Of a stretch of 64,000 nucleotides of DNA, positions 35,914-36,369 are shown piece by piece. The DNA is taken from sequence record MT446420.1. One strand, 5' to 3'. Numbering within the stretch: position 1 is the stretch's first letter; the number at the start of each line of letters is the position of its first letter. The notes under the pieces are model-generated. The model made no database searches, was not told the origin of the DNA, and worked only from the letters and a program-made list of their open reading frames with translations. Origin of the DNA: Escherichia virus TH54. Position numbers and translations under genes: made by a program.

Positions 35914-36369
35914 CTACTTTAAATCCGCCGACCAATTTAATTTTAGCGGTTCTTTATATTCACGGTCTAAAACAACCGGAATCTGAACTTCTCCTTTATA
36001 CGTCAAAGGACCAACATTATAAGACAATGTTATATGAGGAGTATAGTCCGGAAAATCATGTGTTGCGCCAATGGCTCGTGCATACATATGTCTGCAACTA
36101 AGATAATCTGAATTCAGTACAAGAACCAGGGTGCTGCCGTCGTCGGTTTTCCATACTTCCAAGTGACCAGAGTTAGCTACTTCAAAACTACCGGAAGCAA
36201 CAACATATGGAATATTTACTCTGGAGTAACATATAGTAGAATGGAATTTTTCGCGAGGAACAGGGTTAGGCACTTTAAGAGAGCGCTGAAGATTTTCCAG
36301 CGCATCAAGAGTTAATTCTGAAAATTTGGCTGCAACATAAAGTCCTTCAGAGACTTCATTTAATGTCAT
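35914..36369 (-). CDS. 57B: 57B-like 2H phosphoesterase (Acb1 anti-CBASS family)
   Basis: 151 aa; two H-x-T motifs (HSTI, HITL); synteny next to 57A. Confidence 0.8.

Follow-up and report, generated by a model that had tools for sequence, protein, structure and literature searches.

Gene 57B of Escherichia virus TH54 very probably encodes Acb1, the T4-type anti-CBASS phosphodiesterase

The product of gene 57B of phage T4 was characterised biochemically and named Acb1 (Hobbs et al., Nature 2022, PMC9117128). It was found by activity-guided fractionation as a cGAMP-degrading enzyme, and deletion of the gene abolished the activity of the lysate (PMC9117128). All nine further Acb1 homologues assayed were active, and T4 Acb1 and these homologues cleaved 3'3'-cGAMP, cUA, cAAA and cAAG, but not cGG, in a metal-independent manner (PMC9117128). 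The HxT/HxT tetrad of the T4 enzyme consists of H44, T46, H113 and T115, and H44A/H113A was inactive (PMC9117128). Y12, W74, F107 and W147 stack on the bases of the ligand, E141 is adenine-specific, and residues 145-152 make up a flexible lid at the C terminus that shuts over the ligand (PMC9117128). T4 Δacb1 was specifically sensitised to CBASS operons (PMC9117128). The structures of Acb1 from Erwinia phage FBB1 were solved in the same study (7T26, apo; 7T27, cGAMP complex; PMC9117128). Tevenvirinae escaping Panoptes guard systems include both natural and selected acb1 knock-outs (PMC13577387). The initial annotation of the locus described here had named T4 57B as Acb1, an enzyme that degrades CBASS signals, and the work of Hobbs et al. 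confirms this.

The DNA analysed here, called the window, is a stretch of 64,000 nucleotides of Escherichia virus TH54 (MT446420.1). The acb1 gene (gene 57B) is located at 35914..36369 on the minus strand. Its ATG is at 36369, its stop codon ends at 35914, and it encodes 151 aa plus the stop. The assignment draws on the ORF itself, the Pfam family PF23474, the FBB1 structure 7T26, T4 57B (NP_049750) and the superposition of a predicted structure. The plus-strand ORFs 35907-36101 and 36163-36315 within acb1 were considered and set aside as incidental; the conserved, selected frame is that of the minus strand.

The 151-aa product had been described as carrying HSTI and HITL motifs about 70 residues apart. 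Both were found, at residues 43-46 and 112-115. The first motif, H43-S44-T45-I46, is encoded at 36232..36243 on the minus strand by the codons CAT TCT ACT ATA and aligns with T4 H44/T46. The second, H112-I113-T114-L115, is encoded at 36025..36036 on the minus strand by CAT ATA ACA TTG and aligns with T4 H113/T115. The two motif histidines, H43 and H112, are 69 residues apart, and there is no H-x-[ST] motif beyond these two in the 151-aa protein. When the protein was shuffled 20,000 times with its composition preserved, at least two HxT motifs appeared in 2.8% of the shuffles and two HxT motifs 50-90 residues apart in 0.9%. Chance occurrence is mildly improbable, and the motif pair by itself is weak evidence. 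The observation is secure because of homology, not because of motif statistics.

PF23474 (Acb1) matched the window protein in the Pfam search with 200.3 bits (cutoff 27, E 1.5e-59). Residues 8-148 aligned to positions 1-143 of the 144-position profile. PF23474 was also carried by every database homologue having a Pfam assignment (67 of 67). Among PDB sequences, the FBB1 Acb1 (7T26/7T27) matched best, with E 3.7e-62. The window protein aligned with T4 57B/Acb1 (NP_049750.1, from NC_000866) over all 151 residues without a gap, at 83% identity and 91% positives. Because annotation of the T4 protein begins at an ATG one codon earlier, its residue numbers are higher by 1 than those of the window protein. 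The nine functional residues named by Hobbs et al. were all identical in the window protein, each at its position minus 1. In the ungapped alignment, the catalytic tetrad H44/T46/H113/T115 of T4 corresponds to H43/T45/H112/T114, the base stackers Y12/W74/F107/W147 correspond to Y11/W73/F106/W146, and the adenine-reading E141 corresponds to E140. The membership in the Acb1 family that the initial annotation had proposed was thus borne out by the full-length PF23474 match and the identity to T4 57B, and the alignment check that it had suggested placed both H-x-T motifs exactly on the catalytic residues of T4.

A search of 5.8 billion proteins provided the 33 aligned family members. H43, T45, H112 and T114 were invariant across these homologues, with identity down to 35%. 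Y11, E140 and W146 were at least 90% conserved, and the positions of W73 and F106 kept aromatic residues (W/F and F/Y, respectively). Homologues were detected by tblastn in 1478 of 50,697 phage records. The protein of phage CJ20 is 100% identical to the window protein, and the record of phage EAWsc9 annotates acb1 as "anti-CBASS protein Acb1". The NCBIfam scan of the window protein matched no family, and NCBIfam has no Acb1 model. One homologue cluster (P0006; T4-type Acb1 representative, 167 member sequences) is named at NCBI after a hypothetical protein of "Enterococcus faecalis" on a 3-kb contig. This label most likely reflects T4-like phage contamination of an assembly and not a Gram-positive homologue.

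The gene order around acb1 is 3, 1, 57A, 57B and then internal-protein genes, which is the T4 order 3-1-57A-57B-ipI. The T4 57B position claimed for the gene therefore stands, with 57A, gene 1 and gene 3 upstream and internal-head-protein genes downstream. The upstream neighbour 57A matched PF17594 (GP57, E 1.2e-30), followed by the dNMP kinase gene 1 and gene 3. The order matches that of T4, SP18, VR7 and EAWsc9. The 3-kb neighbourhood of acb1 showed 95-98% identity to 33 SP18/VR7/VR20-like coliphages. EAWsc9, one of these relatives, is classified as Tevenvirinae; Gaprivervirus. The window belongs to a Gaprivervirus, an SP18/VR7-like T-even coliphage.

The T4 and window proteins are collinear. 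They share the tetrad, the stackers, the Glu and the lid Trp, and the two genes share the place after 57A and the overlapping stop and start. They differ by 26 substitutions, with 75% nucleotide identity, and the window protein lacks one residue of the annotated T4 N terminus. In T4 numbering, I43F is located beside a catalytic His and D108P beside the stacking Phe, and three substitutions (D146N, A148S and D149A) are in the lid. Phe at position 43 and Pro at position 108 were found in other family members, and Pro is the family consensus. There is no reason to expect that I43F, D108P or the lid changes would alter the chemistry.

The structure of the window protein was predicted with AlphaFold2 from the 33-member family alignment. 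The mean pLDDT was 88.3 and the pTM was 0.82, and low confidence was limited to the first 6 and last 6 residues. The putative lid segment, residues 144-151 (LNWSADLK; 35917..35940, minus strand), follows from the lid description of Hobbs et al. and contains the conserved W146 (T4 W147). In the apo model, this segment had a pLDDT under 50, as a flexible stretch might. The first Foldseek match in the PDB was 7T26 (E 1.3e-19, rmsd 1.1 Å over 136 columns, target-normalised TM 0.95), and the next was 7T27. The two FBB1 structures together gave an rmsd of 1.1-1.9 Å and a target-normalised TM of 0.91-0.95. The predicted fold is a compact 2H-phosphoesterase matching solved Acb1.

FBB1 Acb1 is the closest solved relative in this comparison. 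It shares 66-68% identity with the window protein over 136-139 aligned residues, and its motifs read HTT/HIT, compared with HST/HIT in the window. It comes from a phage of another host genus and has one extra residue inserted in its β-hairpin after residue 78. The FBB1 structure was solved, whereas the window Acb1 is known from the predicted structure, which superposes at 1.1-1.9 Å. A distant branch is represented by the Acb1-like phosphodiesterase of Burkholderia phage BCSR5 (9Q2G, 9Q2Y). Its depositors gave it the family name, it has the lidded 2H fold and its HxT motifs align, but identity was only about 18%, the sequence E value was 0.003-0.04 and TM was 0.6-0.7.

The dN/dS of acb1 was 0.09 against T4 with dS about 1.5, near saturation, and the values overall were 0.02-0.09. 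Between EAWsc9 and the window, acb1 showed 1 nonsynonymous and 13 synonymous differences. These comparisons indicate that acb1 is under strong purifying selection. A naturally disrupted acb1 with a nonsense mutation exists in Bas43 (PMC13577387); the window ORF, in contrast, is intact. The copy in the window is intact and ordinary.

The stop codon of 57A and the start codon of acb1 overlap by one base at 36369..36369 on the minus strand (TAATG; junction GAAGAATAATGACA), whereas the T4 junction is ATGA. The terminator scan found no terminator-like site between the two genes. Because of the stop/start overlap and the absence of an intervening terminator-like site, it is probable that acb1 shares a transcript with the tail-fibre chaperone gene 57A and that translation of the two is coupled. 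Matches to sigma-70-like promoters numbered 18, barely above the shuffle expectation of 11.4 ± 3.6. An exact T4 late-promoter consensus, TATAAATA, is present at 36813..36820 (minus strand) within gene 1, 211 nt upstream of 57A. A second exact copy is at 35522..35529 (minus strand), just upstream of the internal-head-protein gene starting at 35512. Both are consensus matches only. The search for a MotA-box middle promoter on the minus strand was negative. The promoter and terminator scans give no evidence on the timing of expression. A stem-loop (GTGTAGG...CCTACAC; 35873..35905, minus strand) separates the acb1 stop codon from the GGAG Shine-Dalgarno of the gene that follows, and the 62-nt intergenic segment downstream of acb1 had an RNA MFE of -14.8 kcal/mol. 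A T-run is absent after the stem-loop, and the terminator scan made no call there. The stem-loop might be an element for RNA stability or processing.

Four small genes are arranged in tandem directly downstream of acb1 at 34622..35853 on the minus strand (35521-35853, 35240-35512, 34932-35231 and 34622-34876), whereas T4 has a single ipI. Their N termini are MNIKTYNEFLAE, MKTFNEFFNE, MQTFHEFLVE and MKTYQEFINE. The likeness is to the capsid-targeting sequence of the T4 internal proteins; IPI, for example, starts with MKTYQEFIAE. In PHROGs, three of the four matched "internal head/virion protein" and the fourth matched a PHROG of unknown function; the Pfam search of the four genes gave no match. 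EAWsc9 labels two of the counterparts "profilin" and "homing endonuclease", which are probably mis-annotations. The first of the four was listed at 35521..35886 (minus strand), with the ATG at 35886 (121 aa) as its start in the ORF list and another ATG at 35853 (110 aa). The latter is preceded by GGAGTTAAA and yields a product of 110 aa, as in the EAWsc9 annotation, whose N terminus, MNIKTYNEF, is internal-protein-like. From these signals, 35853 appears the likelier start. In T4, ipI occupies this place, and its product blocks GmrSD (PMC9117128). The tandem genes may encode an enlarged repertoire of injected anti-defence proteins, and the array fits the anti-defence island described by Hobbs et al., a function suggested by this likeness. 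Two small ORFs elsewhere in the window, 21239..21538 and 21595..21858 (minus strand), begin with MKTYQEFITE. They are internal-protein-like, and their place close to denV corresponds roughly to that of ipII and ipIII in T4.

The initial annotation had credited the window with at least one likely anti-signalling enzyme. If anything, this was an understatement. A 92-aa ORF at 19747..20025 on the minus strand matched PF24729 (Acb2_Tad1_hairpin, E 2.9e-15) and 7UQ2 ("Vs.4", E 7.1e-28). Compared with 7UQ2, both termini were nearly identical, and the middle was divergent with a 4-residue insertion. The ORF is in the regB-denV interval, as in T4. By sequence, its product is homologous to T4 Vs.4, which is the Acb2 sponge for cyclic oligonucleotides. 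With the Acb1 and Acb2/Vs.4 homologues in the window, the phage carries both known T4 anti-CBASS proteins.

In this study, we consider it very likely that the ORF at 35914..36369 is the T4 57B orthologue Acb1, a small metal-independent 2H-phosphoesterase, with its activity assigned by orthology. The steps of the mechanism are carried over from the T4 and FBB1 experiments in the same way. Acb1 would bind 3'-5'-linked cyclic di- and trinucleotides with at least one adenosine (3'3'-cGAMP, cUA, cAAA and cAAG). Y11, W73, F106 and W146 would stack on the bases, and E140 would read the adenine N6. The C-terminal lid would then shut over the ligand. The ligand would be strained, so that the adenosine 2'-OH could attack the adjacent 3'-5' phosphodiester over H43/T45/H112/T114. 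The metal-free reaction would yield linear products by way of a 2',3'-cyclic phosphate intermediate. Once the signal is destroyed, CBASS effectors (Cap4, Cap5, CapV and others) would stay inactive and abortive infection would not follow.

In the natural hosts of the phage, a true Acb1 might act mainly outside CBASS, for instance on the cA3 of type III CRISPR, or be a net liability that triggers Panoptes. Acb1 degrades cA3 in vitro, and the co-resident Acb2/Vs.4 sponge already covers cyclic-nucleotide signals. Panoptes of types I and II restricts the acb1-bearing Tevenvirinae Bas35-37, whose escapers carry an inactivated acb1 (PMC13577387). However, such roles would add to the CBASS role without replacing it, since the chemistry of the enzyme is the same. 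The strong purifying selection and the 1478 phage records argue that acb1 is beneficial on balance, and T4 Δacb1 was sensitised specifically to CBASS operons. We therefore regard a mainly non-CBASS role as unlikely and retain the anti-CBASS reading.

Within the anti-CBASS reading, the Gaprivervirus Acb1 could have a substrate range shifted from that of T4 Acb1. The candidate changes are I43F, D108P, D146N, A148S and D149A. The enzyme might, for example, act on signals that T4 Acb1 spares, or cleave less cA3 and so avoid triggering Panoptes. On the sequence comparison, we hold such a shift to be quite improbable. If it were true, the window Acb1 and the co-resident Acb2 sponge would divide the labour between them.

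Another name is attached to this family. The description of phrog_755 in PHROGs is "RNA ligase", and RefSeq records of T4-like phages give 57B the same name. Read literally, these labels would make the protein a LigT-type 2'-5' RNA ligase or an RNA 2',3'-cyclic phosphodiesterase for RNA repair or tRNA processing, and a phage tRNA cluster lies a few kb from acb1. The LigT/2H CPDases (E. coli LigT 5LDI, Arabidopsis CPDase 1FSI and the rotavirus VP3 2',5'-PDE) share the superfamily fold and two HxT/S motifs with the window protein, and Foldseek matched E. coli LigT with E about 1e-4. Their substrates are different: RNA ends, ADP-ribose 1'',2''-cyclic phosphate and 2'-5' oligoadenylate. LigT, plant CPDase, Usb1 and rotavirus VP3 were distant 2H-superfamily matches only. 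The LigT structures gave 12-16% identity, TM of about 0.4-0.55 and an rmsd of 6-9 Å, compared with 1.1 Å for Acb1. The score for PF13563 (2_5_RNA_ligase2) was 11.9 bits, where the cutoff is 27 (E 0.24, residues 90-121). Moreover, the T4 orthologue is the cGAMP-degrading enzyme whose deletion removes the lysate activity (PMC9117128), and "RNA ligase" is an older name passed on by homology, not a tested function. A LigT or RNA ligase identity was rejected as highly improbable, the score being below the Pfam threshold and the structural likeness at the level of the superfamily only.

There is next to no chance that the gene has decayed or lost its catalytic function, or that it encodes an unrelated small protein with chance HxT motifs: two HxT motifs do arise in about 3% of shuffles and natural nonsense mutants such as that of Bas43 exist, but the full-length ORF, the retention of all catalytic and ligand-binding residues, dN/dS of 0.02-0.09 and full-length homology with E below 1e-59 effectively refute it.

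The family, mechanism, structure and distribution of Acb1 are already known and were published in 2022, and a protein identical to that of the window is already in GenBank. UniRef and at least two phage records already give close relatives the name Acb1. The acb1 gene of the window opens no new biology. The result helps to correct the widespread annotation of 57B homologues as "RNA ligase" or "hypothetical protein". An intact anti-CBASS nuclease together with an Acb2 sponge is useful for predicting the host range of the phage on E. coli with CBASS or Panoptes.
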